Below, piece by piece: positions 10,370-62,219 of a stretch of 62,497 nucleotides of DNA (position 1 is its first letter; every line of letters starts with the position of its first letter). A model generated the notes under the pieces. The model saw only the letters and a program-made list of their open reading frames with translations. It had not been told where the DNA came from and made no database searches. The stretch comes from Clostridiales bacterium (GTDB lineage Bacteria > Bacillota > Clostridia > UBA1381), in assembly GCA_029226065.1 (NCBI GenBank), contig JAQXXM010000060.1, positions 1 through 62,497 on the forward strand, given 5' to 3'. The position numbers and the translations under genes were made by a program.

Positions 10370-12541
10370 ATGAAAGTTATTAAGCGTAACGGCGCAGAAG
10401 TCGATTTTGACGTTGAGAAAATAATTGCCGCAATGACAAAAGCTAATAATTCGGGTCAACATAAAGAGCTTACAGAAGGACAGATACTTGAAGCGGCTGA
10501 CTATATAGCATATAAATGTGATAAAATGAATCGTGCTGTGTCCGTAGAGGAAATTCAGGATTTAGTAGAAAACCAGATAATGGCTTATGGTGCGTTTGAT
10601 ATTGCAAGAAACTATGTGAGGTACAGATATAATCGTTCTCTTGTAAGAAAATCAAATACAACCGATGATAGAATTTTATCTTTGATTGAATGTAACAACG
10701 AAGAAGTAAAACAGGAAAACTCAAACAAGAACCCTACAGTAAACAGTGTTCAGCGTGACTATATGGCAGGAGAGGTAAGTAAAGATATAACAAGACGTAT
10801 TCTCTTACCTGAGGAAATAGTTAAAGCTCACGAGGAAGGAATTATTCATTTCCATGATGCTGACTATTTTGCTCAGCACATGCACAACTGTGATCTTGTA
10901 AATCTTGAAGATATGCTCCAAAACGGTACGGTTATAAGTGAGACACTTATCGAAAAGCCGCACAGCTTTTCGACAGCTTGTAATATATCAACACAGATTA
11001 TTGCGCAGGTTGCTTCATGCCAGTATGGCGGTCAGAGTATTAGTCTTACACATCTTGCTCCGTTTGTTGATGTCAGCCGTAAAAAGATAAGACGTCAGGT
11101 AACGGAGGAACTGCAGAGCATTGATCTGAATGTTTCTGATGAAAAAATTGACGAAATAACAGAAAAAAGATTGCGTCAGGAAATCAAAAACGGTGTTCAG
11201 ATGATACAGTATCAGGTTGTTACACTGATGACAACAAACGGACAAGCTCCTTTTGTAACTGTATTTATGTACCTTAACGAGGCAAAAAATGAGCAGGAAA
11301 AGGCAGATCTTGCACTGATTATTGAAGAAACACTAAAACAGCGTTATATAGGTGTTAAGAACGAGAAGGGTGTATGGATAACACCTGCATTTCCGAAACT
11401 GATATATGTTCTTGAGGAGGACAATGTCCACAAAGACAGCAAATACTATTATTTGACAGAACTTGCGGCAAAGTGTACAGCTAAGAGAATGGTACCGGAC
11501 TACATTTCTGAAAAGATAATGTTAGAGACTAAAGTCGACAAGAACGGTGAAGGTCACTGTTATACTTGTATGGGTTGCAGAAGCTTTTTGACACCGTATG
11601 TTGACGAGGACGGCAAGGCTAAATATTATGGCCGTTTCAATCAGGGTGTAGTAACTGTGAACCTCGTAGATATAGGACTTTCCGCTAAAAAAGATATGAA
11701 AAAGTTCTGGGAAATTTTTGATGAACGCCTTGAACTTTGTCATAGAGCATTACAGTGCCGCCATGAGCGTTTAACAGGAACGCTTTCAGATTCTGCTCCG
11801 ATTTTGTGGCAGTACGGTGCTTTATCAAGACTAAAGAAAGGTGAGACTATAGATAAGTATTTGCACGGCGGTTACTCAACATTGTCGTTGGGATATGCAG
11901 GACTGTGGGAATGTGTTTACAGCCTCATCGGTAAAAAGCTGACAGAGCCCGAGGGCGAGGAACTTGGACTTGAAATTATGCAGAAGCTTAATGAGTATAC
12001 TGCTAAGTGGAAGGCCGCAGAAAATATAGATTATTCGATATACGGCACACCACTTGAAAGTACAACTTATAAATTCGCTAAAAGCTTACAAAAGCGTTTT
12101 GGCATTGTTGAAGGTGTAACGGATAGAAACTATATAACAAACAGTTATCACGTGCACGTAACAGAAGAAATAGACGCTTTTGAAAAATTAAAGCTTGAGG
12201 CAAAATTCCAGACCTTGTCACCTGGCGGTGCTATATCGTATGTTGAAGTACCGAATATGCAGGACAACCTCGAAGCTGTAGAATCTGTAATGAAATTCAT
12301 TTACGACAACATTATGTATGCGGAGCTTAATACTAAATCCGATTATTGTCATGAATGTGGATTTGATGGTCAGATACAAATAGTTGAAGAAAACGGAAAG
12401 CTTGTTTGGGAATGTCCAAACTGCGGAAATCGCAATACGGATAAAATGGACGTTGCACGTCGTACCTGCGGATATATCGGAACACAGTTTTGGAATCAGG
12501 GAAGAACACAGGAAATAAAAGACAGAGTTCTTCATCTGTAA
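10370..12541 (+). CDS. nrdD: Anaerobic ribonucleoside-triphosphate reductase (class III)
   Basis: N-terminal ATP-cone (KRNGAEVDFDVEKI), C-terminal zinc ribbon CHECG...CPNCG and glycyl-radical tail RRTCGYIG. 723 aa. Confidence 0.95.
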   Translation: MKVIKRNGAEVDFDVEKIIAAMTKANNSGQHKELTEGQILEAADYIAYKCDKMNRAVSVEEIQDLVENQIMAYGAFDIARNYVRYRYNRSLVRKSNTTDDRILSLIECNNEEVKQENSNKNPTVNSVQRDYMAGEVSKDITRRILLPEEIVKAHEEGIIHFHDADYFAQHMHNCDLVNLEDMLQNGTVISETLIEKPHSFSTACNISTQIIAQVASCQYGGQSISLTHLAPFVDVSRKKIRRQVTEELQSIDLNVSDEKIDEITEKRLRQEIKNGVQMIQYQVVTLMTTNGQAPFVTVFMYLNEAKNEQEKADLALIIEETLKQRYIGVKNEKGVWITPAFPKLIYVLEEDNVHKDSKYYYLTELAAKCTAKRMVPDYISEKIMLETKVDKNGEGHCYTCMGCRSFLTPYVDEDGKAKYYGRFNQGVVTVNLVDIGLSAKKDMKKFWEIFDERLELCHRALQCRHERLTGTLSDSAPILWQYGALSRLKKGETIDKYLHGGYSTLSLGYAGLWECVYSLIGKKLTEPEGEELGLEIMQKLNEYTAKWKAAENIDYSIYGTPLESTTYKFAKSLQKRFGIVEGVTDRNYITNSYHVHVTEEIDAFEKLKLEAKFQTLSPGGAISYVEVPNMQDNLEAVESVMKFIYDNIMYAELNTKSDYCHECGFDGQIQIVEENGKLVWECPNCGNRNTDKMDVARRTCGYIGTQFWNQGRTQEIKDRVLHL

Positions 12542-12556
12542 GTCGGAGGTAATGGT

Positions 12557-13078
12557 TTGAACTATGCAGAAATAAAATACTGCGATATAGCAAACGGTGA
12601 AGGCGTAAGAGTGAGCTTGTTTGTATCAGGGTGTACCCATAGATGCAAAAACTGTTTTAATGAAATTGCATGGGACTTTAATTATGGCAACAAGTTTACA
12701 GAAGAAATCGAAAATAAGATTATAGAAGCTTGTAAACCCGAATATATATCCGGTATAACCATTTTAGGAGGAGAGCCGTTTGAACCTGAAAATCAGCCGG
12801 CACTGACGAAGTTTCTGCATAGGTTCAGAGAACTTATGCCGGATAAGAATGTGTGGTGCTATTCAGGATATACGTATGAGGAACTGACGGGTGAGAGAAA
12901 AAGCAGATGCTATACCGATAATACATCTGAAATGTTAGATATGATTGATGTTTTAGTTGACGGGAAATTCGTTCAGGAGCTACATAGCATTATGTTGAAA
13001 TTCCGTGGCAGTTCCAATCAGCGTTTGATAGACTTAAGAAAAACACGTGAAACAGGTCAAATTGTAATTAAAGAATAA
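12557..13078 (+). CDS. nrdG: Class III ribonucleotide reductase activating protein (radical SAM)
   Basis: GCTHRCKNCFN cluster motif and N-terminal DIANGEGVR. TTG start 7 nt after GGAGG. Directly downstream of nrdD. Confidence 0.9.
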   Translation: MNYAEIKYCDIANGEGVRVSLFVSGCTHRCKNCFNEIAWDFNYGNKFTEEIENKIIEACKPEYISGITILGGEPFEPENQPALTKFLHRFRELMPDKNVWCYSGYTYEELTGERKSRCYTDNTSEMLDMIDVLVDGKFVQELHSIMLKFRGSSNQRLIDLRKTRETGQIVIKE

Positions 13079-50084: not shown

Positions 50085-51116
50085 TTATACAAATCTGTAT
50101 TCTGTAATGTGGTAATACTCCTCGCCTTTTCTCAATAATGCAGTTGGGAAATGACTGTAATGTACACAATCGGGGAATGTCTGTGTTTCAAGACACAATC
50201 CGTCGTGAACGCCGTTTTCATAATCGCCCTTATTGGCACTCTCAAGCATATTCGCTGTATAAAGCTGTACACCATGCTGATTTGTAAATACCTGCATAAC
50301 AATACCTGTCTTGTCACCTGTCACTGTTGCACATAGACGCAATCCTGTGCCGTCAAGTACAAAGTTGTGGTCAAAGCCATTCACTCTTGCAACCTGCAGA
50401 TAATCTGAAGTCATACCGTCGCCCAATCTTTTTTCCTCAGTAAAATCAAAAGGTGTTCCTACAACCGACAAAACCTCACCTACAGGTATATTCATATCGT
50501 CATTGGGAGTAAAAAATCTTGAGTTCATCTGTAGTTTGTGATCATATATTTTTCCGCTATTATATCCATTAAGATTAAAATATGAATGATTTGTCAGATT
50601 GCACACTGTATCTTTATCCGACTTTGCGAAATATTCTATCTTTAAGCCGTTTTCGTCTGTTACGGAATATTTTATGTCAACATCCATATTGCCTGGGAAG
50701 CCCTCTTCCCCATCAACAGATGTGTAACTTAAAATAACAGCGTTTTCCCCTTCTACGACTTTTGCATCCCACAATTTCTTATTAAATCCGACAAATCCAC
50801 CATGAAGTGAATTGCCTTTATTATTTTTTCCAACATGGTATGTAGTACCGTTTATTTCAAATTCGCCATTTCTTATTCTATTACCGAAACGGCCTATTGC
50901 CGCACCGAGACAGCCATCGTTTTCGAGATATTCCTCCATGCTTGCTCTGCCCAGAACGACATCTATATCATTATTATTCTTATCCTTAGTTATAAGCTTA
51001 GTAACAATTCCGCCGTAATTTATGATATGGGCGGTAACAAAACCGTTACTTAAAACAAATTCATAGACTTCTCTGCCGTCGGGCAATATTCCGTAGTTAT
51101 TTTTTACAACTGACAT
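50085..51116 (-). CDS. galM: Aldose 1-epimerase (galactose mutarotase)
   Basis: 343 aa. GRFGNRI, NSLHGG and TNHSYFNL motifs typical of the family. Confidence 0.85.
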   Translation of the reverse strand: MSVVKNNYGILPDGREVYEFVLSNGFVTAHIINYGGIVTKLITKDKNNNDIDVVLGRASMEEYLENDGCLGAAIGRFGNRIRNGEFEINGTTYHVGKNNKGNSLHGGFVGFNKKLWDAKVVEGENAVILSYTSVDGEEGFPGNMDVDIKYSVTDENGLKIEYFAKSDKDTVCNLTNHSYFNLNGYNSGKIYDHKLQMNSRFFTPNDDMNIPVGEVLSVVGTPFDFTEEKRLGDGMTSDYLQVARVNGFDHNFVLDGTGLRLCATVTGDKTGIVMQVFTNQHGVQLYTANMLESANKGDYENGVHDGLCLETQTFPDCVHYSHFPTALLRKGEEYYHITEYRFV

Positions 51117-55740: not shown

Positions 55741-55816
55741 AGCGGGGTAGAGCAGCTGGCAGCTCGCAAGGCTCATAACCTTGAGGTCGGAGGTTCAAGT
55801 CCTCCTCCCGCACCCA
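55741..55816 (+). tRNA. tRNA-Met (CAU), initiator-like
   Basis: Hand-folded 76-nt cloverleaf. Acceptor 2-7/66-71, D stem GAGC/GCTC, anticodon stem CAAGG/CCTTG with loop CTCATAA, T arm GGAGG-TTCAAGT-CCTCC, encoded CCA. Strong resemblance to E. coli tRNA-fMet. Confidence 0.9.
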
Positions 55817-55927
55817 AATAAGACTGACTATTTTGATAGAATAGTCGGTCTTTTCTTTTTATCTTAAAAACGCTCAAATATTGCCATATTGCGGTATTTT
55901 ACGGTTTTTTCAAATCTTTATGAATAA
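55815..55927 (+). repeat. Direct repeat, left copy (113 bp), starting in the last 2 nt of tRNA-Met
   Basis: By-eye alignment to 60347-60459: about 105/113 identical with three small indels. Confidence 0.85.
55820..55860 (+). terminator. Rho-independent terminator after tRNA-Met
   Basis: AAGACTGACTATT / AATAGTCGGTCTT stem (one G-U pair) followed by TTTCTTTTT. Confidence 0.8.
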
Positions 55928-55954
55928 TCAAGAATAACGGTAAGAACTGATTGA

Positions 55955-56740
55955 TTATTTATCGAGCATTTTTTTATTCTGTCGGTATTCTGTTGCTGTC
56001 ATTCCTGTCATTTTCTTAAAATAGCGGCAAAAATAGCTTTCATCACCAAAACCCGAAAGTTCTGAAATCTGTGGAATAGAATAGTAATCCGATACAATAA
56101 GTTCTTTCGCTCTTGAAAGCTTGAGCTCATTTATGTATTTTATCGGAGTGGTATTTTTGCTTTTTAAAAAAATATTTCTCAAATAGGTCGTACTTATACC
56201 GCATAAAATTGCAAGATGCTCTACGCTTATATTTTCAGATGTATAGTTTTTGTGAATGTATTCCAATGCCGGTGCAATAATTTTTTCTGTGCTTTTTGGC
56301 ATATACTTTTTTTCGTATTTGTAGAGCATAGAGCAGATTACAGAATACAAATTTGCTTTGCACTGCATTTCGTATCCGTATGACTTCAAACGAAATGCTT
56401 TTTCAGCAGACTTGAACTTGTCTGTTACCAAATCACCTATATTTAAAACAAACGGCTCAAAAGAAACAGTATCGGCGATTTTGAAATTTATGGCGTAACA
56501 ATCTCCCGGACACGTCATTTCTACAATATAGTTTGAATGCTCCGGCATAAAAATTATATCATTCTTTCCGGTGTGAAGTATATTCCTCCCCTCAAATGTA
56601 TACTTTTTGTTACCGGATATATGTAAAGCCAAACCGTGTGAAGCTCTGTTTTTGTGAACAGTGTCGCCCTCTCCTTTTGGAACATAACACGCAAGAACTA
56701 TTCTTTCTATATTAAAATTGTAGTCAAAAAAATTTTTCAT
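55955..56740 (-). CDS. AraC-family transcriptional regulator
   Basis: Cupin-like N-terminal sensor domain and C-terminal double HTH (ISELSGFGDESYFCRYFKKMTGMTATEYR). Start trimmed to MKNFFDY, 10 nt after AGGAGG; the track start would lie inside the promoter. Confidence 0.85.
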   Translation of the reverse strand: MKNFFDYNFNIERIVLACYVPKGEGDTVHKNRASHGLALHISGNKKYTFEGRNILHTGKNDIIFMPEHSNYIVEMTCPGDCYAINFKIADTVSFEPFVLNIGDLVTDKFKSAEKAFRLKSYGYEMQCKANLYSVICSMLYKYEKKYMPKSTEKIIAPALEYIHKNYTSENISVEHLAILCGISTTYLRNIFLKSKNTTPIKYINELKLSRAKELIVSDYYSIPQISELSGFGDESYFCRYFKKMTGMTATEYRQNKKMLDK

Positions 56741-56762
56741 GAGCATCATACCTCCTGTGAAT

Positions 56763-56791
56763 ATTATAACATTTTGTTTTGAAATAGTCAA
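56763..56791 (-). promoter_or_regulatory. Putative sigma-A promoter for the AraC regulator
   Basis: Minus strand reads TTGACT (56786-56791), 17 nt, TATAAT (56763-56768). Confidence 0.55.
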
Positions 56792-56809
56792 TAAGTGTTG
56801 AAATACTCA

Positions 56810-56838
56810 TTGACCAATCTATAGTTTTGCACTATTAT
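56810..56838 (+). promoter_or_regulatory. Putative sigma-A promoter for the glycyl-radical enzyme operon
   Basis: TTGACC (56810-56815), 17 nt, TATTAT (56833-56838). Flanked by two GTGTTGAAA copies (56795-56803, 56841-56849). Confidence 0.55.
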
Positions 56839-56878
56839 ATGTGTTGAAAAATTAAATATATTTCAGGGAGGATTTCAT

Positions 56879-59113
56879 ATGTTTAATCATGACAGAAAAT
56901 TTATAGAAAATAAATACCACAAAACAGACGAGCCGTTCAACCCTTATGCCAGAATGGCATATCATGGGTACGGTTACGACAAAAGCACCGGTCTTGAGGA
57001 TGAGGAAATCAGAGACGGTCTTGCAAAGCTTTATGAAAAAACAAAGGATTTGCCGCACCCTGTTGCAAAAGCCTATGCGGTCAAATATGTTCTTGAAAAT
57101 ACAAAAATAGATATAAACGAGCATGATTTCTTTGTCGGATTTTGGAGTGTAAATCGGCTTGCAAAATGCATAACTCAGGATAAATGGTATGATGAAGTCT
57201 TTGATAATATTCTTCCCGGATTAAAAGAGAAAATGCACGACATGAACGAATCCGGTGCGATTGCAATATGGCCAGATTTCGACCATGTTGTTCCCGATTG
57301 GGATTCGATATTAAAACTGGGTTTTTCGGGACTTAAAAAGCGTGCCGAAGAATACAAAGAGTTGCATAGAAACAACAATACTCTGACAGCCGAAACGGAA
57401 GCGTTTTTTGATGGAATTATAATCGAATACACTGCGATAATAGATTTAATCGACAGACTATACAAATATGCGCTGACAAAAACTCACCCAAAAGCAAAAA
57501 AGGTTACAGAATGTCTTTATCATATACGTGACGGAGCACCGCAGAATATTTACGAGGCAATGCAGGTAATCTATATTTACTTTATGATTTCGGAATGCTT
57601 TGACTCATATCAGGTAAGATCTCTCGGCAACGGTCTTGACAATACTTTGTATTCTTTTTATCAAAACGACTTAAAAAACGGTATATATACAAGGGAAGAT
57701 ATAAAAGAGCTTTTAAGATATTTTCTTATGCAATGGTCGGCAATAGGCAACTACTGGGGACAGCCATTTTATATGGGCGGCACAAATATTGACGGAAGTA
57801 CAAAATACAATGATCTTTCCTATGATATACTCGATGTCTATGACGAACTGGGAATATACAACCCCAAAATTCAAGTAAAAATCAACGAAAACACCCCGGA
57901 TAAGATCCTTTTCAAGGTATTTGACATGATACGTCGTGGTAAGAACTGCTTTGCCTGCTGTTGCGAGCCTGGCATGATGAAGGCTATTATGAGCTATGGT
58001 GCAACATACGAAGAAGCACTTAATATGGATATACGCGGTTGCTATGAAGCCGGAGTGAGAGCCAATGAAGTAGTAACCGGAACGGGCTATGTCAACGCTT
58101 TAAAATCGGTGGAATATGTATTCAGCAACGGCTTTGATTCGAGAATAGGCAAGCAACTCGGGCTCAAAACAGACGAACTGAAGGGCTTAAATACATTCGA
58201 GGACTTTTACATCGCTGTTTTAAAACAGTGGGAAAATCTTATTGAAATGACGATTGACGTATCAAAGCAGTATGAAAAATATCTCAGCTTTATCAACCCG
58301 TCAAATATGTATTCCGCAACGATTGAGGGCGCGCTGAAAAAAGGTACGGACGCATATCAAAGCGCCGTAAAATTTAATAATTCAGCTATTTTAAACTGTG
58401 GATTTGCAAGCTTTGTGGATGCGGTTATGGCGGTAAAGAAATTTGTGTACGATAAAAAAGTTGTGTCAATCCAAACACTTGCCGAGGCTCTTAATAAAAA
58501 TTGGTCAGGATTTGAAGATTTACATACACAAATACTTAAAAGTCCACACAAATACGGAAATGACGATGCCGAAACGAACAGATACGCAGAAGCAATGTCC
58601 GCATATTTTGCGTCAAAAGTAAACAACCGCCCCAATGCGCGAGGCGGTGTCTACAAGGCCATTATGCACTCGGCAATGCAGTTTGTTTGGCAGGGTGAAA
58701 AAACAGGCGCAACCCCGGATGGAAGACATGCAGGAGAAGAAATATCGAAAAATGCATCACCGTCTGTGGGAATGGACAAAAACGGAGTTACGGCATTGAT
58801 AAATTCGGCGATTAAAACAAAACCGTATAATTATATAGAAGCTCATTGTCTTGATGTTATGCTGCATCCGTCCGCAGTCAGTGGTGATGAAGGCCTTGAA
58901 ATTATGAAATCGCTGCTATTCATGTATATGAAAAACGGTGCTCAGACTGTGCAATTTAACGTGTTCAACACAGAAACGCTACGCGATGCACAAAAACACC
59001 CCGATAAATACAAAAACCTGCAAGTCAGAGTTTGCGGCTGGAATGTACTATGGAATAACCTCAGCGAGAAGGAGCAGAATGCTTATATTACACGTGCAGA
59101 GAATATAAAATGA
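56879..59113 (+). CDS. Glycyl-radical enzyme, PFL2/dehydratase-like branch, substrate unknown
   Basis: Gly loop LQVRVCGWN (Gly720), thiyl loop RGCYE (Cys388/Glu390), ATPDGR and QFNV motifs. 744 aa. GGGAGG RBS. Confidence 0.9.
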   Translation: MFNHDRKFIENKYHKTDEPFNPYARMAYHGYGYDKSTGLEDEEIRDGLAKLYEKTKDLPHPVAKAYAVKYVLENTKIDINEHDFFVGFWSVNRLAKCITQDKWYDEVFDNILPGLKEKMHDMNESGAIAIWPDFDHVVPDWDSILKLGFSGLKKRAEEYKELHRNNNTLTAETEAFFDGIIIEYTAIIDLIDRLYKYALTKTHPKAKKVTECLYHIRDGAPQNIYEAMQVIYIYFMISECFDSYQVRSLGNGLDNTLYSFYQNDLKNGIYTREDIKELLRYFLMQWSAIGNYWGQPFYMGGTNIDGSTKYNDLSYDILDVYDELGIYNPKIQVKINENTPDKILFKVFDMIRRGKNCFACCCEPGMMKAIMSYGATYEEALNMDIRGCYEAGVRANEVVTGTGYVNALKSVEYVFSNGFDSRIGKQLGLKTDELKGLNTFEDFYIAVLKQWENLIEMTIDVSKQYEKYLSFINPSNMYSATIEGALKKGTDAYQSAVKFNNSAILNCGFASFVDAVMAVKKFVYDKKVVSIQTLAEALNKNWSGFEDLHTQILKSPHKYGNDDAETNRYAEAMSAYFASKVNNRPNARGGVYKAIMHSAMQFVWQGEKTGATPDGRHAGEEISKNASPSVGMDKNGVTALINSAIKTKPYNYIEAHCLDVMLHPSAVSGDEGLEIMKSLLFMYMKNGAQTVQFNVFNTETLRDAQKHPDKYKNLQVRVCGWNVLWNNLSEKEQNAYITRAENIK

Positions 59114-59131
59114 AAAAATAGGAGAAAAATA

Positions 59132-60004
59132 ATGAAAGCAAATATAGTCGAAATCAAACGATTTGCCGTACATGACGGCGACGGAATTCGAACGACCGTG
59201 TTTTTCAAGGGTTGTCCGCTCAAATGTCTGTGGTGTCATAACCCCGAAACACTTTCACAAAAGTGGCAGCTTGCCTTTTACAGTCACAAGTGCGTTATGT
59301 GTGGAAAATGTGCGGAGGTTTGCGCTTGTCATGCGTTTTCTGAAAATATACATAGAATAGACAGAACAAAATGCACTACGTGCGGAAAGTGTGTTAATGT
59401 CTGTCCCCAAAGTGCTCTTGAAATATTCGGTACGGAAATGAGTACGGATGAAATTTGCACAACTTTGCTTAGAGATAAGGATTTCTACGCAGAGAGCGGA
59501 GGCGGAATTACATTATCGGGCGGTGAGTGTTTGCTTCAAAGCGGCGCTTGCTGTAAAATTTTAAAAAGAATGAAACAAAACGGTATAAACACAGCAGTTG
59601 ATACCTGCGGATTTGTTCCGAGAACGGCAATAGACAAGGTTATGCCATACACAGACACATTTCTGTACGATATTAAGGCGATAGATGAAGATGTGCATAT
59701 TAAATGCACCGGTCAGTCTAATAAAATTATTCTCGATAATCTTGTATATCTGGATAGCTGTGGGGCAAAAAGCGAAATACGCATTCCTTATGTATCCAAA
59801 TATAACGATGAGCAAATACCAAAAATCGCCGAATTTCTAAGCACTCTTAAAAATGTAGTCCGTGTACGGGTTTTGCCATATCACAATTATGCAGAATCAA
59901 AATACAACGCACTAAATATCAAAAATACGCTTCCGATGATTTTGCCGACAAAGGAAGAAATGGAAAAAACAAAAACAATACTATCTTCGTATGGTTTGAT
60001 ATGA
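59132..60004 (+). CDS. Glycyl-radical enzyme activating protein (radical SAM with a ferredoxin insert)
   Basis: CPLKCLWC (CxxxCxxC, C28/C32/C35) plus CVMCGKCAEVC and CTTCGKCVNVCP auxiliary cluster motifs. Starts 18 nt downstream of the GRE. Confidence 0.9.
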   Translation: MKANIVEIKRFAVHDGDGIRTTVFFKGCPLKCLWCHNPETLSQKWQLAFYSHKCVMCGKCAEVCACHAFSENIHRIDRTKCTTCGKCVNVCPQSALEIFGTEMSTDEICTTLLRDKDFYAESGGGITLSGGECLLQSGACCKILKRMKQNGINTAVDTCGFVPRTAIDKVMPYTDTFLYDIKAIDEDVHIKCTGQSNKIILDNLVYLDSCGAKSEIRIPYVSKYNDEQIPKIAEFLSTLKNVVRVRVLPYHNYAESKYNALNIKNTLPMILPTKEEMEKTKTILSSYGLI

Positions 60005-60281: not shown

Positions 60282-60318
60282 ATTGCACCCCCTTAATGCA
60301 AATTGCACCCCCTTAATG
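60282..60318 (+). repeat. Two tandem copies of ATTGCACCCCCTTAATG (period 20 bp)
   Basis: 17/17 identical at 60282-60298 and 60302-60318. Confidence 0.8.
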
Positions 60319-60346
60319 AAATTCTATTAAAATATAACTTCTTTCA

Positions 60347-60459
60347 CAAATAAGACTGACTATTTTGATAGAATAGTCGGTCTTTTCTTTTTTATTAAAA
60401 ACGCTCAAATATTGCAGTATTGCGGTATTTTACGGTTTTTACAAATCCTTAATGAATAA
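60347..60459 (+). repeat. Direct repeat, right copy (113 bp), including a second copy of the tRNA terminator hairpin
   Basis: Aligns to 55815-55927. The hairpin AAGACTGACTATT/AATAGTCGGTCTT is repeated at 60351-60383. Confidence 0.85.
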
Positions 60460-60607: not shown

Positions 60608-60638
60608 GAAGCGCATTGCAAAAATTGCAATGCGCTTC
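60608..60638. terminator. Palindromic hairpin downstream of the immunity-candidate gene
   Basis: GAAGCGCATTGCAA / TTGCAATGCGCTTC, perfect 14-bp arms. Confidence 0.6.
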
Positions 60639-60681
60639 TAAAAGCGAAAATAAATTATCAATATAATTTGATATCAAACTC

Positions 60682-61179
60682 TTAAAAAAGTTTTATCGTT
60701 CTATACAGTTCAAAAACATAGTAAAGACAATACAAGCTACAAAGGATAACCATTACTTTTTTTCTGCCTTGATACCTTTTTACAAATATATCAGTATAAA
60801 ATACATAATGAGCAATTACAGCAAAAAGCTTAATAAATATAATCCATAATCTACTGATAAAAATTTCAAAAAAGTTAAAAACGGATAGCAATGACAAGAT
60901 TACAGGAATTAAGCGAATCGCTGCATTGTATTGCAAAAACTCCTTATAGACCGACTTAAAGGAAACCGTTGCTTTAGAAAACAGATTGAAAATAAAATTA
61001 TCTATAATCGGTTCAATCAAAACACTGCCTATCGCCATCAATACAAGCATTAACCCATAAAATATCCCTTTAGAAAAAGATACTGAACTGATTACCACCA
61101 ACGCAGTATATGCAGCAAGAATCAAAAACGCAGCTTTATCCGTGCACTTGTATATAAAATCACGAAATTTTACGAACAT
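60682..61179 (-). CDS. Multi-pass membrane protein, candidate immunity protein for the adjacent RHS toxin tail
   Basis: 166 aa with 4-5 hydrophobic helices. Lies 65 bp downstream of the toxin ORF on the same strand. Start trimmed to MFVKF, 5 nt after GAGGA. Confidence 0.5.
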   Translation of the reverse strand: MFVKFRDFIYKCTDKAAFLILAAYTALVVISSVSFSKGIFYGLMLVLMAIGSVLIEPIIDNFIFNLFSKATVSFKSVYKEFLQYNAAIRLIPVILSLLSVFNFFEIFISRLWIIFIKLFAVIAHYVFYTDIFVKRYQGRKKVMVILCSLYCLYYVFELYRTIKLF

Positions 61180-61256
61180 TTTAATCCTCATTTCTGTTTA
61201 AAATCTTTAAGTTGAAGGTCATCGTCAAACAGAAAACTATACTTTTTTGTTGAATA

Positions 61257-62219
61257 TTATTTTTCAACATATACGATTCTATCACCAGCCTTAGCGCTTT
61301 CAAAAGAATTAGCACTAAGAATCAAACCCAAAATATTAGCAACAACATCAACATTTGGCGAAAAAATTGATGAGGCTCCAGAACTGGTAAAATCGTTCAA
61401 AACTCGCTTGCTTTCAAGTTCAGCTTCACTTTCGGATAATGGTGATAAAAAACGAAAATTGTAATTCGTATATGCCGCTTTATCAGTAGTATAATTATAA
61501 TTGTCATTATAGCCTTTATTTTTTGTCAATAATAAGCCAACCTTCGGCGATTCAAATCTAATAGGTCCATATCCTTCGTAATTTTCATATCTTTTACTGC
61601 TTCTTATCATTGCTGCTTGATAGTGTGTCGCATCCATAAATTCTGAATTTTTGTTTTTCTTTGCCCAGTTATAAATCTCACCCAACAAAGTTATTTTTAT
61701 AGCATCATCTTTTGTAAGCACAGAATCATCCACTTCAAATCCCGTTAGATCAAAAAAATTCATAGGATTTCCGATACAATACACATATAAATTATTACTT
61801 TGGCGAATCGCTAAGATGTCAATTTCAGCATATTCTCCGTCATGATCATCCCCATATATCATATTATCGGGTGTCCAATGAGAATCCGGCGAAACAAACC
61901 TCCCCAGTTCAGGGTCATAGTATCTTGCCCTTAGATATATGAATCCCGTTTCTGTATCGTAGTATTCACCGCAATAACGGAAAGGATTTGTATCTTCCTT
62001 ATCAGGATTGGTTTCTACCCCATATTCATCATATGTATACTCTTTGATAATATTTCCGGAACTGTTAACTAAGGCCGTTACATCACCGTGGTTATTGGTT
62101 ACATAGTAAGTTTTTGTTCCTTTTTTATCCTTACTATATATTATGCCCGTTACACCACGGATATAATTCGTTACATCTCCGTCCTTAATCTCGGCAATTA
62201 CATATATTCCGTCAAGCAC
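61257..62219 (-). CDS. Orphan RHS repeat-associated core fragment with a C-terminal polymorphic toxin tail (N-terminally truncated)
   Basis: YD repeats, RYYDPELGRFVSPD, then NLYVYCIGNPMNFFDLTGF, then a 160-aa tail of unknown type. The repeat frame continues upstream to an in-frame TAA at 62307-62309. Confidence 0.8.
   Translation of the reverse strand: MLDGIYVIAEIKDGDVTNYIRGVTGIIYSKDKKGTKTYYVTNNHGDVTALVNSSGNIIKEYTYDEYGVETNPDKEDTNPFRYCGEYYDTETGFIYLRARYYDPELGRFVSPDSHWTPDNMIYGDDHDGEYAEIDILAIRQSNNLYVYCIGNPMNFFDLTGFEVDDSVLTKDDAIKITLLGEIYNWAKKNKNSEFMDATHYQAAMIRSSKRYENYEGYGPIRFESPKVGLLLTKNKGYNDNYNYTTDKAAYTNYNFRFLSPLSESEAELESKRVLNDFTSSGASSIFSPNVDVVANILGLILSANSFESAKAGDRIVYVEK

Follow-up and report, generated by a model that had tools for sequence, protein, structure and literature searches.

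The cassette and its genes

The stretch of Clostridiales DNA analysed here (contig JAQXXM010000060.1; 62,497 nt, the whole of which is called the window) carries a self-contained three-gene cassette of about 4 kb. It consists of an AraC-family regulator gene and, divergent from it, the genes for a glycyl radical enzyme (GRE) and its radical S-adenosylmethionine (SAM) activase, and it is presumably induced by a substrate. The GRE gene at 56879-59113 on the forward strand has an ATG start and a GGGAGG Shine-Dalgarno sequence about 8 nt upstream, and encodes a 744-residue member of a short clade with the loop motifs RVCGW and GCYE. The glycyl loop LQVRVCGWN (aa 714-722, 59018-59044, +) contains the radical-bearing Gly720 (59036-59038), and its RVCGW segment (aa 717-721) matches the GRE superfamily fingerprint R-V-x-G-[FWY]. 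The thiyl loop DIRGCYEAG (aa 384-392, 58028-58054, +) contains Cys388 (58040-58042) and Glu390 (58046-58048), and the GRE also carries ATPDGR (aa 611-616) and QFNV (aa 692-695). An earlier annotation made from the letters of the DNA (the sequence-only reading) had named both hallmark loops and these two motifs, and every motif and coordinate was reproduced to the nucleotide.

A Pfam search with the GRE revealed the PFL-like domain (E=2.3e-93, 314.4 bits; gathering cut-off 24.3) and the Gly_radical domain (E=1.2e-22, 80.8 bits; gathering cut-off 22.2). Because of these scores and because the neighbouring activase passes the TIGR02494 model, the GRE assignment is not a chance match. An AlphaFold model built from a 122-sequence alignment (predicted local distance difference test 89.4, predicted template modelling score 0.90) shows the 10-stranded barrel fold of GREs, with Cys388 predicted at the tip of a hairpin between strands 384-386 and 390-392. 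We conclude from the sequence that the open reading frame (ORF) 56879-59113 encodes a genuine GRE, which is predicted to be oxygen-sensitive and catalytically competent.

The activase gene (59132-60004, +) follows after 18 bp and encodes 290 residues with Radical_SAM and Fer4 Pfam domains. The protein scores 323 bits against TIGR02494, which has a cut-off of 174. The CX3CX2C motif is C28-x3-C32-x2-C35 (59213-59236), and a ferredoxin insert (59291-59404) contains two CX2CX2C motifs, CVMCGKC (aa 54-60) and CTTCGKC (aa 81-87). These features agree with the earlier assignment of the activase to the type that does not serve pyruvate formate-lyase (PFL).

The regulator gene (55955-56791, -) was recognised by the C-terminal HTH_18/HTH_AraC domains in Pfam, and Pfam and PDB comparisons revealed no match for its N-terminal sensor domain. 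Its relatives are 261-262 residues long, and the true start is probably near an internal ATG at about 56746. The divergent promoter region between the regulator and the GRE genes (56792-56878) has sigma-70-like hexamers on both strands; the promoter-like sites at 56798-56825 (+), 56810-56838 (+) and 56791-56763 (-) are consensus matches, no more numerous than in shuffled sequence. As the earlier annotation had noted, the module contains no gene for a transporter, a microcompartment shell or a small subunit, and inspection of the ORFs revealed no small ORF between or beside the three genes.

Comparison with characterised GREs

Every NCBIfam equivalog model fell short of its cut-off on this GRE by a factor of at least 3. 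The scores were 318 bits for HypD (cut-off 1100), 270 for HpsG (1000), 255 for HpfG (1000) and 228 for CutC (1050), followed by the decarboxylases IAD (196 against 1100) and HPAD (185 against 1150), whose models match best in the C-terminal part; the PFL model TIGR01255 gave 81 bits against 994. The model of the PFL2/glycerol-dehydratase subfamily, TIGR01774, also failed (323.4 bits against 678.2). A PDB sequence search with the GRE returned HypD (260 bits), Archaeoglobus fulgidus PFL2 (242), glycerol dehydratase (237), propanediol dehydratase (221) and PFL (72), and a search with a profile of the clade returned HypD (323), PFL2 (311), PflD (307) and glycerol dehydratase (296). A Foldseek search using the model revealed similarity to essentially all GRE eliminases and isomerases, with template modelling (TM) scores of 0.81-0.87 and 20-27% identity, and none stood out. 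In these profile, PDB and Foldseek comparisons the GRE lies, as far as its sequence places it, outside every characterised isofunctional group, in line with its initial description as divergent.

According to a 2026 review, the characterised PFL-like GREs comprise formate-lyases, decarboxylases, X-succinate synthases, eliminases that cleave C-O, C-N or C-S bonds, the isomerases HplG, YbiW and PflD, and aminoacyl radical enzymes (AAREs), and entire GRE clades are without validated function (PMC13450708). No class in that review corresponds to the short RVCGW clade. The AAREs are a functionally uncharacterised GRE-like group found mostly in metagenome-assembled genomes (MAGs) of Eubacteriales, with variable gene neighbourhoods (PMC11528403). 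In them the radical position is taken by Ala, Ser or Thr, whereas Gly720 is present here and 123 of the 124 clade representatives keep it, so AARE identity was ruled out.

The best match is HypD (PDB ID 6VXC), with a TM score of 0.84 and 27% identity. The two proteins have in common a G-C-x-E thiyl loop, ATPDGR, QFNV and a ferredoxin-insert type of activase, and Cys388 and Glu390 align with Cys434 and Glu436 of HypD. However, the GRE of the cassette is about 45 residues shorter, its N-terminal region is unaligned, its glycyl loop reads RVCGW and not RVAGY, and no gene for pyrroline-5-carboxylate reductase is found near the cassette. HypD Asp278 corresponds to Gln245, and the loop with HypD Ser334 and Phe340 is deleted. 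Asp278 and the Ser334/Phe340 loop are reportedly the substrate-binding residues of HypD.

Glycerol dehydratase (PDB ID 1R8W) has the same barrel fold (TM score 0.84), and its C433/E435/H164 triad corresponds to C388/E390/H136. The GRE is 23-25% identical to it and to 1,2-propanediol dehydratase (PDB ID 5I2A), and differs from both in the absence of microcompartment genes, in the glycyl loop and in having F-A-C-C-C-E-P in place of F-x-N-D-E. Archaeoglobus fulgidus PFL2 (PDB ID 2F3O), whose function is debated, was the second-best match of both the GRE and the clade profile, and its RVAGW glycyl loop likewise has Trp after the Gly. PFL2 is, however, a 776-residue protein of an archaeal hyperthermophile with 25% identity, and has Ala before the Gly where the GRE of the cassette has Cys. 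PflD and YbiW (PDB IDs 8ID0 and 8ID7) isomerise 1,5-anhydromannitol-6-phosphate and 1,5-anhydroglucitol-6-phosphate, and among characterised GREs they alone use sugar-derived substrates. Like the GRE of the cassette they contain C-x-E, and the histidine of their G-x-G-H motif aligns with His136; PflD is the third-best PDB match of the clade profile, and C-O cleavage beside a ketyl radical makes them a plausible mechanistic analogue. They are about 22% identical to the GRE, their regulator and gene context differ, and the cassette has no phosphotransferase system or sugar-phosphate genes.

A pyruvate or 2-ketoacid formate-lyase would agree with the generic PFL-like Pfam domain, and PFL (PDB ID 1H16) shares with this protein the GRE fold, the glycyl radical domain and a vicinal Cys pair somewhere in the chain. 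In PFL, however, Cys418-Cys419 lie on the thiyl loop, whereas the G-C-Y-E loop here has a single Cys and the Cys pair is found 26 residues upstream on a barrel strand. With the pair on the wrong structural element, PFL identity was ruled out. The TIGR01255 score, the weak PDB match to PFL and the ferredoxin-insert type of the activase, which is not PflA-like, also argue against a formate-lyase, and we regard this function as effectively refuted.

A large clade of short GREs

An exhaustive HMMER search was run over 1.84 billion cluster representatives, and the best 150 representatives of 50%-identity clusters were analysed. Almost all of these are short proteins scoring 270-1026 bits, and the last few are canonical RV(S/T)GY proteins of about 790 residues at about 268 bits. 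The clade comprises at least 105 clusters at 50% identity, and 105 of the representatives carry C-G-W. Its signature is a glycyl loop LQ(V/I)R(V/L)CGWN, a thiyl loop GCYE, an N-terminal D-x-x-H-x-x-P-x-W motif and a length of about 650-775 residues. The GRE of the cassette has all of these features, and its matches within the clade reach 270-1026 bits, compared with at most 260 bits for characterised GREs.

Conservation was counted over 124 full-length clade representatives. In the glycyl loop, Cys719 is kept in 107, Gly720 in 123 and Trp721 in 117 of them; in the thiyl loop the counts are 124 for Cys388, 113 for Tyr389 and 116 for Glu390; and His136 is found in 122. Clade members without a fusion have 652-774 residues, with a median of 725. 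These clade-wide counts indicate that the RVCGW loop and the short length are the signature of the clade and not oddities of one gene. The sequence-only reading had called both atypical; within the clade, however, 744 residues is typical and RVCGW is the hallmark.

The clade occurs in gut Clostridia and in glycan degraders of the Kiritimatiellia type. The PDB contains no member, all of them fall short of the curated NCBIfam models, and the only name found in the sources is "hypothetical protein". Targeted literature searches (GRE together with Kiritimatiellia, fusions to carbohydrate-active enzymes (CAZymes), lactonases or deoxy-sugars) revealed no description of the clade, subscription journals being mostly outside their coverage. 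The clade is thus a large uncharacterised group of GREs with a simple diagnostic signature.

Predicted catalytic residues and mechanism

His136 (57284-57286, +) is the putative general acid in the D-x-x-H-x-x-P-x-W motif, and its aligned counterparts are His155 in PFL2 and the GQGH histidine in PflD. In the phmmer alignment to 1r8w, query residue 134 falls on chain residue 162, which, by alignment only, puts His136 at the position of glycerol-dehydratase His164. In all GRE eliminases and isomerases the Glu hydrogen-bonds and deprotonates a substrate hydroxyl, and in glycerol dehydratase His164 protonates the departing hydroxyl (PMC13450708). By sequence, then, the eliminase/isomerase triad Cys388/Glu390/His136 is conserved in the clade. 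The C-x-E arrangement had previously been taken as a mark of the 1,2-eliminating branch as opposed to PFL. The likeness to this branch stands and is strengthened by His136, but C-x-E is kept also by the isomerases HplG, YbiW and PflD (PMC13450708) and does not single out the eliminases.

From the triad and the residue roles assigned in the review we infer the standard GRE radical sequence. The activase would place the radical on Gly720, from which it would move to Cys388. The Cys388 thiyl radical would take a hydrogen from a substrate carbinol carbon, and Glu390 would deprotonate the attached hydroxyl to give a ketyl radical. His136 would then protonate the neighbouring oxygen leaving group (a hydroxyl, an O-substituent or a ring oxygen); the leaving group would be lost and the product radical would regain hydrogen from Cys388. 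The net reaction would be a 1,2-elimination (dehydration) or a ring-opening isomerisation, yielding a deoxy-carbonyl or lactone product.

The Cys-rich strand

The CFACCCE stretch (aa 357-363, 57947-57967, +) is present as first described, and F-A-C-C-C (358-362) forms a beta-strand in the model, followed by a helix and then the Cys hairpin. Cys362 occupies the position of the canonical Asn, and Glu363 that of the canonical Asp, of the F-x-N-D-E strand. GRE active sites are built from barrel strands, and the Cys loop comes directly after the first half-barrel (PMC13450708); in view of this placement in the model, the Cys-rich stretch may line the substrate pocket.

The C-C-C triplet, which had been singled out as atypical, is not itself conserved. 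Some 53 loci of the close family (54-85% identity) have the consensus V-F-C-C-E-P, with an occasional S-C or C-Y at 361-362. Among them Cys360, with which the triplet begins, occurs only in the window and in one relative, Cys357 alternates with Ser, and only Cys361 and Cys362 are conserved, and only in the close family. Across the 124 clade representatives, position 362 is Asn in 80, Ser in 17, Gly in 16 and Cys in 8; position 361 is mostly Ile, Val, Met or Leu, and at position 360 Phe is found in 87. In the nearest sister groups the stretch is V-F-V-G-E-P. This pattern at position 362 is more readily explained by a subfamily-specific, pocket-shaping substitution of small residues than by a thiol that catalysis requires.

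Cys360-362, perhaps together with Cys719, could instead give another radical chemistry, either as a redox Cys pair in a reduction like that of class III ribonucleotide reductases or as a PFL-like two-cysteine relay. The occurrence of F-C-C-E-P in nearly all close-family loci, the position of the motif on the barrel strand right before the Cys finger, and the status of Cys719 as a clade hallmark would be consistent with such a role. However, the Asn, Ser, Gly or Cys found at position 362 and the Gly of the sister groups point to the shape of the pocket, Cys360 is idiosyncratic and family members have S-C or C-Y at 361-362, the canonical Cys/Glu/His triad is intact, and the cassette has no thioredoxin-like or formate-related partner. 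We therefore consider an alternative cysteine chemistry very unlikely.

Distribution of the cassette

Among 61 genome loci, the order AraC(-)/GRE(+)/activase(+) was found in most, with the AraC cluster present in 49 and the activase cluster in 41; the genes around the cassette vary from locus to locus. Except for one Kiritimatiellia MAG, all are from MAGs of uncultured gut Clostridia (Oscillospiraceae, Acutalibacteraceae and others). Many of these genomes, the closest ones included, were recovered from herbivore guts or from the guts of Hadza or Nepali people, which fits fibre-rich diets. A metagenome scan with the clade alignment returned about 20 usable clade loci; otherwise it drew in mostly canonical RVAGY GREs, which the generic ATPDGR pattern also matches. 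The neighbours at the usable loci comprised little beyond the activase, AraC, GFO/IDH/MocA proteins and one SASA esterase.

Tandem paralogous GRE modules, most with their own AraC gene, were found at eight loci (L003, L005, L008, L026, L056, L058, L065 and L066). At L065, where the GRE is 84% identical to that of the window, three GRE genes have the glycyl loops RVTGY, RVCGW and RVCGF. Such tandem arrays suggest that the family is diversifying, each substrate having a sensor of its own.

Possible links to carbohydrate metabolism

Several clade GREs are fused in frame to carbohydrate-related domains, namely an AXE1/CE7 acetyl-xylan esterase (in two clusters), a SASA esterase, a GH2 mannosidase-like domain, a GH78 rhamnosidase and, in at least four 90%-identity clusters (P0143, P0289, P0334 and P0335), a 3-keto-disaccharide-hydrolase domain. 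Further fusions involve an FAD oxidoreductase and an unknown domain of 850 residues. Several of the fusions recur at full length on 3, 5 and 9 independent contigs, and one (L062) is a continuous 956-residue ORF in an NCBI MAG, followed by an activase. At two loci (L063 and L064), the GRE and activase genes are embedded in dense glycan-degradation clusters with GH2, GH28, GFO/GH109, DUF4838, arabinofuranosidase, BD-FAE, SASA and GDSL esterases and an AraC regulator. Neighbours at other loci include lectin-type and sugar-binding regulators, and GH2, GH28, GH30/59, GH78, GH94-like, GH123, CE4, CE15 and L-fucose isomerase genes amid housekeeping genes.

The FAD oxidoreductase fusion (P0353) is a protein of 1202 residues, and at L063 (16038-20264) stand-alone FAD oxidoreductases and a GFO/GH109-like dehydrogenase adjoin the GRE and activase genes. 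This hints at a link to keto-sugar pathways of the 3-keto-glycoside type. The cluster with the unknown domain (P0176; 1551-1584 residues, 9 full-length members) has the GRE fused to an N-terminal region of about 850 residues with no Pfam match, which begins with a signal-peptide-like hydrophobic segment, MRGFAFLVSIAIVSSAAAF. Such a start is puzzling because a GRE needs its cytoplasmic activase.

About 10 loci of the subfamily to which the window's GRE belongs carry additional genes between the GRE and activase genes, encoding an SMP30/gluconolactonase-family protein, one or two EamA transporters, and a beta-lactamase-fold hydrolase or GDSL hydrolases. The SMP30 protein is closest to regucalcin and to the Smp-30/Cgr1 family protein 7plb, and the best NCBIfam match of the beta-lactamase-fold hydrolase is the methyl-acetate hydrolase AcmB. 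At L002, where the GRE is 85% identical, an esterase, a lactonase and an EamA gene lie exactly at the GRE-activase junction, which indicates that the window carries the minimal form of the operon. The sequence-only reading held that the substrate could not be inferred and that the AraC sensor was the sole functional hint. Both statements are superseded, since the fusions and gene contexts also point to carbohydrate and comparative genomics partly indicates carbohydrate-derived substrates.

The same operon partners bear on a further alternative, a GRE decarboxylase of an organic acid resembling the arylacetate decarboxylases. HPAD carries Cys503 and Glu505, that is, a Glu two residues past the catalytic Cys, and the IAD- and PhdB-type enzymes are not known to need a small subunit; moreover, the EamA partner resembles exporters of carboxylates and aromatic amino acids. 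The IAD and HPAD models nevertheless score lowest of the PFL2-type families, HPAD comes last among the structural and sequence matches, and a decarboxylase would leave His136 and the lactonase, esterase and CAZyme context unexplained. An HPAD-type enzyme, for which a small subunit would be expected but no small ORF was found, was set aside because of these scores, and decarboxylation in general seems to us only a slim prospect.

Flanks of the cassette and other features of the window

The cassette is set among housekeeping genes and is bounded by two direct repeats of about 106 bp. The left copy (55815-55920, +) contains a terminator-like hairpin (55820-55852) and is abutted by a tRNA-Met (CAT) gene at 55741-55816 (+), a landmark of the putative insertion site, identified by ARAGORN and Rfam (tRNA, 54.6 bits, E=4.5e-10). 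The right copy (60347-60451, +) is about 90% identical with a 1-bp indel and contains the identical hairpin at 60352-60384; this 33-nt hairpin is present exactly twice, with 0 copies expected by chance. In the closest relative (94% identity at the amino acid and 92% at the nucleotide level), homology is restricted to 55938-59991, i.e., exactly the three genes. Flanking direct repeats of 76-141 bp were also found at four other loci: L004 (5120-5195 and 14166-14241), L023 (6974-7064 and 11117-11207), L026 (6930-7059 and 11267-11396) and L052 (6072-6210, 10481-10621 and 12098-12223). The left copy at L023 overlaps the 3' end of a SpoIVB gene, as if the target had been duplicated upon insertion. 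The AraC-GRE-activase unit has the look of a small islet that is mobile or was delivered by recombination. No recombinase or integrase gene is present inside the cassette, the flanks of the window were matched in none of the 61 genome loci, and exact-sequence look-ups returned no record for the GRE or a flanking CwlD-like protein and no empty insertion site.

Between the activase stop codon and the right repeat lies a perfect to near-perfect 20-bp tandem duplication (60282-60321), ATTGCACCCCCTTAATG(C/A)AA x2. An Rfam match to Atu_C9 at 60608-60728 was under the gathering score and was taken as chance. Farther downstream, the region 60682-62219 (-) encodes an RHS/YD-repeat-like C-terminal part with RYYDPELGRFVSPD and then a variable tail, followed by a 169-residue multi-pass membrane protein with no Pfam match; the two could be a polymorphic toxin tip and its immunity gene. 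A putative second GRE system lies at 10370-13078, where a class III ribonucleotide reductase-like ORF of 723 residues, so assigned from ORF size and N-terminal sequence only, is followed by an activase-like ORF of 173 residues with a weak BLAST match to the cassette activase (E=5e-4 over 34 residues). An aldose 1-epimerase (mutarotase) gene at 50085-51116 (-; Pfam E=1.5e-79) is located 5 kb upstream of the cassette with housekeeping genes between, and is probably unrelated to it, though noteworthy if the substrate is a sugar.

Discussion

The function that we favour, with about even confidence, is that of a substrate-inducible cassette whose GRE would carry out a 1,2-elimination or isomerisation of the Cys/Glu/His type on a small carbohydrate-derived molecule. 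If so, the substrate would most likely be a monosaccharide, a sugar acid or a lactone, possibly after de-esterification. Several points weigh against this assignment. All clade members are biochemically uncharacterised, and C-x-E together with His is compatible with dehydration as well as with isomerisation, and with breakage of C-O, C-N or C-S bonds. The cassette in the window has no carbohydrate or accessory gene, its flanks are housekeeping genes, and the neighbours beyond AraC and activase are highly variable among loci. The neighbour counts are raw, and gut Clostridia and Kiritimatiellia are rich in CAZymes anyway. The strongest carbohydrate evidence, including the majority of the striking fusions, comes from a subclade that is only about 37% identical to the GRE of the window, and GRE specificity can shift at such a distance. 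Being generic, EamA proteins and hydrolases of the beta-lactamase-fold or GDSL type would suit organic acids or non-sugar esters as well. As for the nearest characterised enzyme, the HypD substrate-binding residues are not conserved in this GRE.

The same eliminase-type chemistry might thus be applied to a non-carbohydrate polar metabolite, such as a hydroxy-amino acid, diol, amino alcohol, hydroxy-acid ester or sulfonate, in which case the CAZyme links would reflect host lifestyle or other subclades. HypD and its activase are the nearest characterised relatives by score, EamA best fits a carboxylate/amino-acid/amine transporter model, the beta-lactamase-fold partner fits a methyl-acetate hydrolase, and both the lack of a sugar gene in the cassette and the variable neighbourhoods would be expected. 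Such a substrate would leave unaccounted for, however, the multiple independent in-frame fusions to glycoside hydrolases (GHs) and carbohydrate esterases (CEs), the embedding in CAZyme clusters, and the operonic partner that is closest to aldonolactonases. The HypD-type binding residues are absent, and the Arg/Gln/Arg triad that anchors sulfonates was not found by homology, in a mapping that was not rigorous. A non-carbohydrate substrate therefore appears to us possible but rather unlikely.

A bolder form of the favoured carbohydrate assignment is that the short RVCGW clade as a whole represents an unrecognised class of radical carbohydrate-processing enzymes, with the cassette in the window as a minimal, AraC-switched member. 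We consider this generalisation distinctly doubtful. Under it, a glycosidase or esterase would set free a sugar, from which the thiyl radical would take the hydrogen at the anomeric or an adjacent carbinol carbon. Glu390 would deprotonate the hydroxyl, a neighbouring O-substituent (OH, O-acyl, O-methyl or glycosidic O) would be eliminated with the help of His136, and the product would be a deoxy-aldonolactone or a keto-deoxy sugar. If true, this would be a cofactor-free, redox-neutral route from sugars to deoxy sugar acids, and it would explain the GH and CE fusions, the 3-keto-disaccharide-hydrolase fusions and the SMP30-type lactonase between the GRE and activase genes.

GREs drive consequential anaerobic reactions in the gut, among them the formation of trimethylamine, p-cresol, skatole and H2S precursors and the use of hydroxyproline. 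The system described here is a bona fide GRE system. The clade to which it belongs is uncharacterised, probably acts on a new class of substrate, and has domain fusions that are unprecedented within the literature searched. Its compact three-gene unit and the simple clade signature provide a convenient experimental handle on a large clade. If the carbohydrate link is true, GRE chemistry on sugars, known so far from YbiW and PflD as two sugar-phosphate isomerases, would reach into mainstream glycan catabolism, and the clade would be the first in which GREs share one chain with glycoside hydrolases and with carbohydrate esterases.

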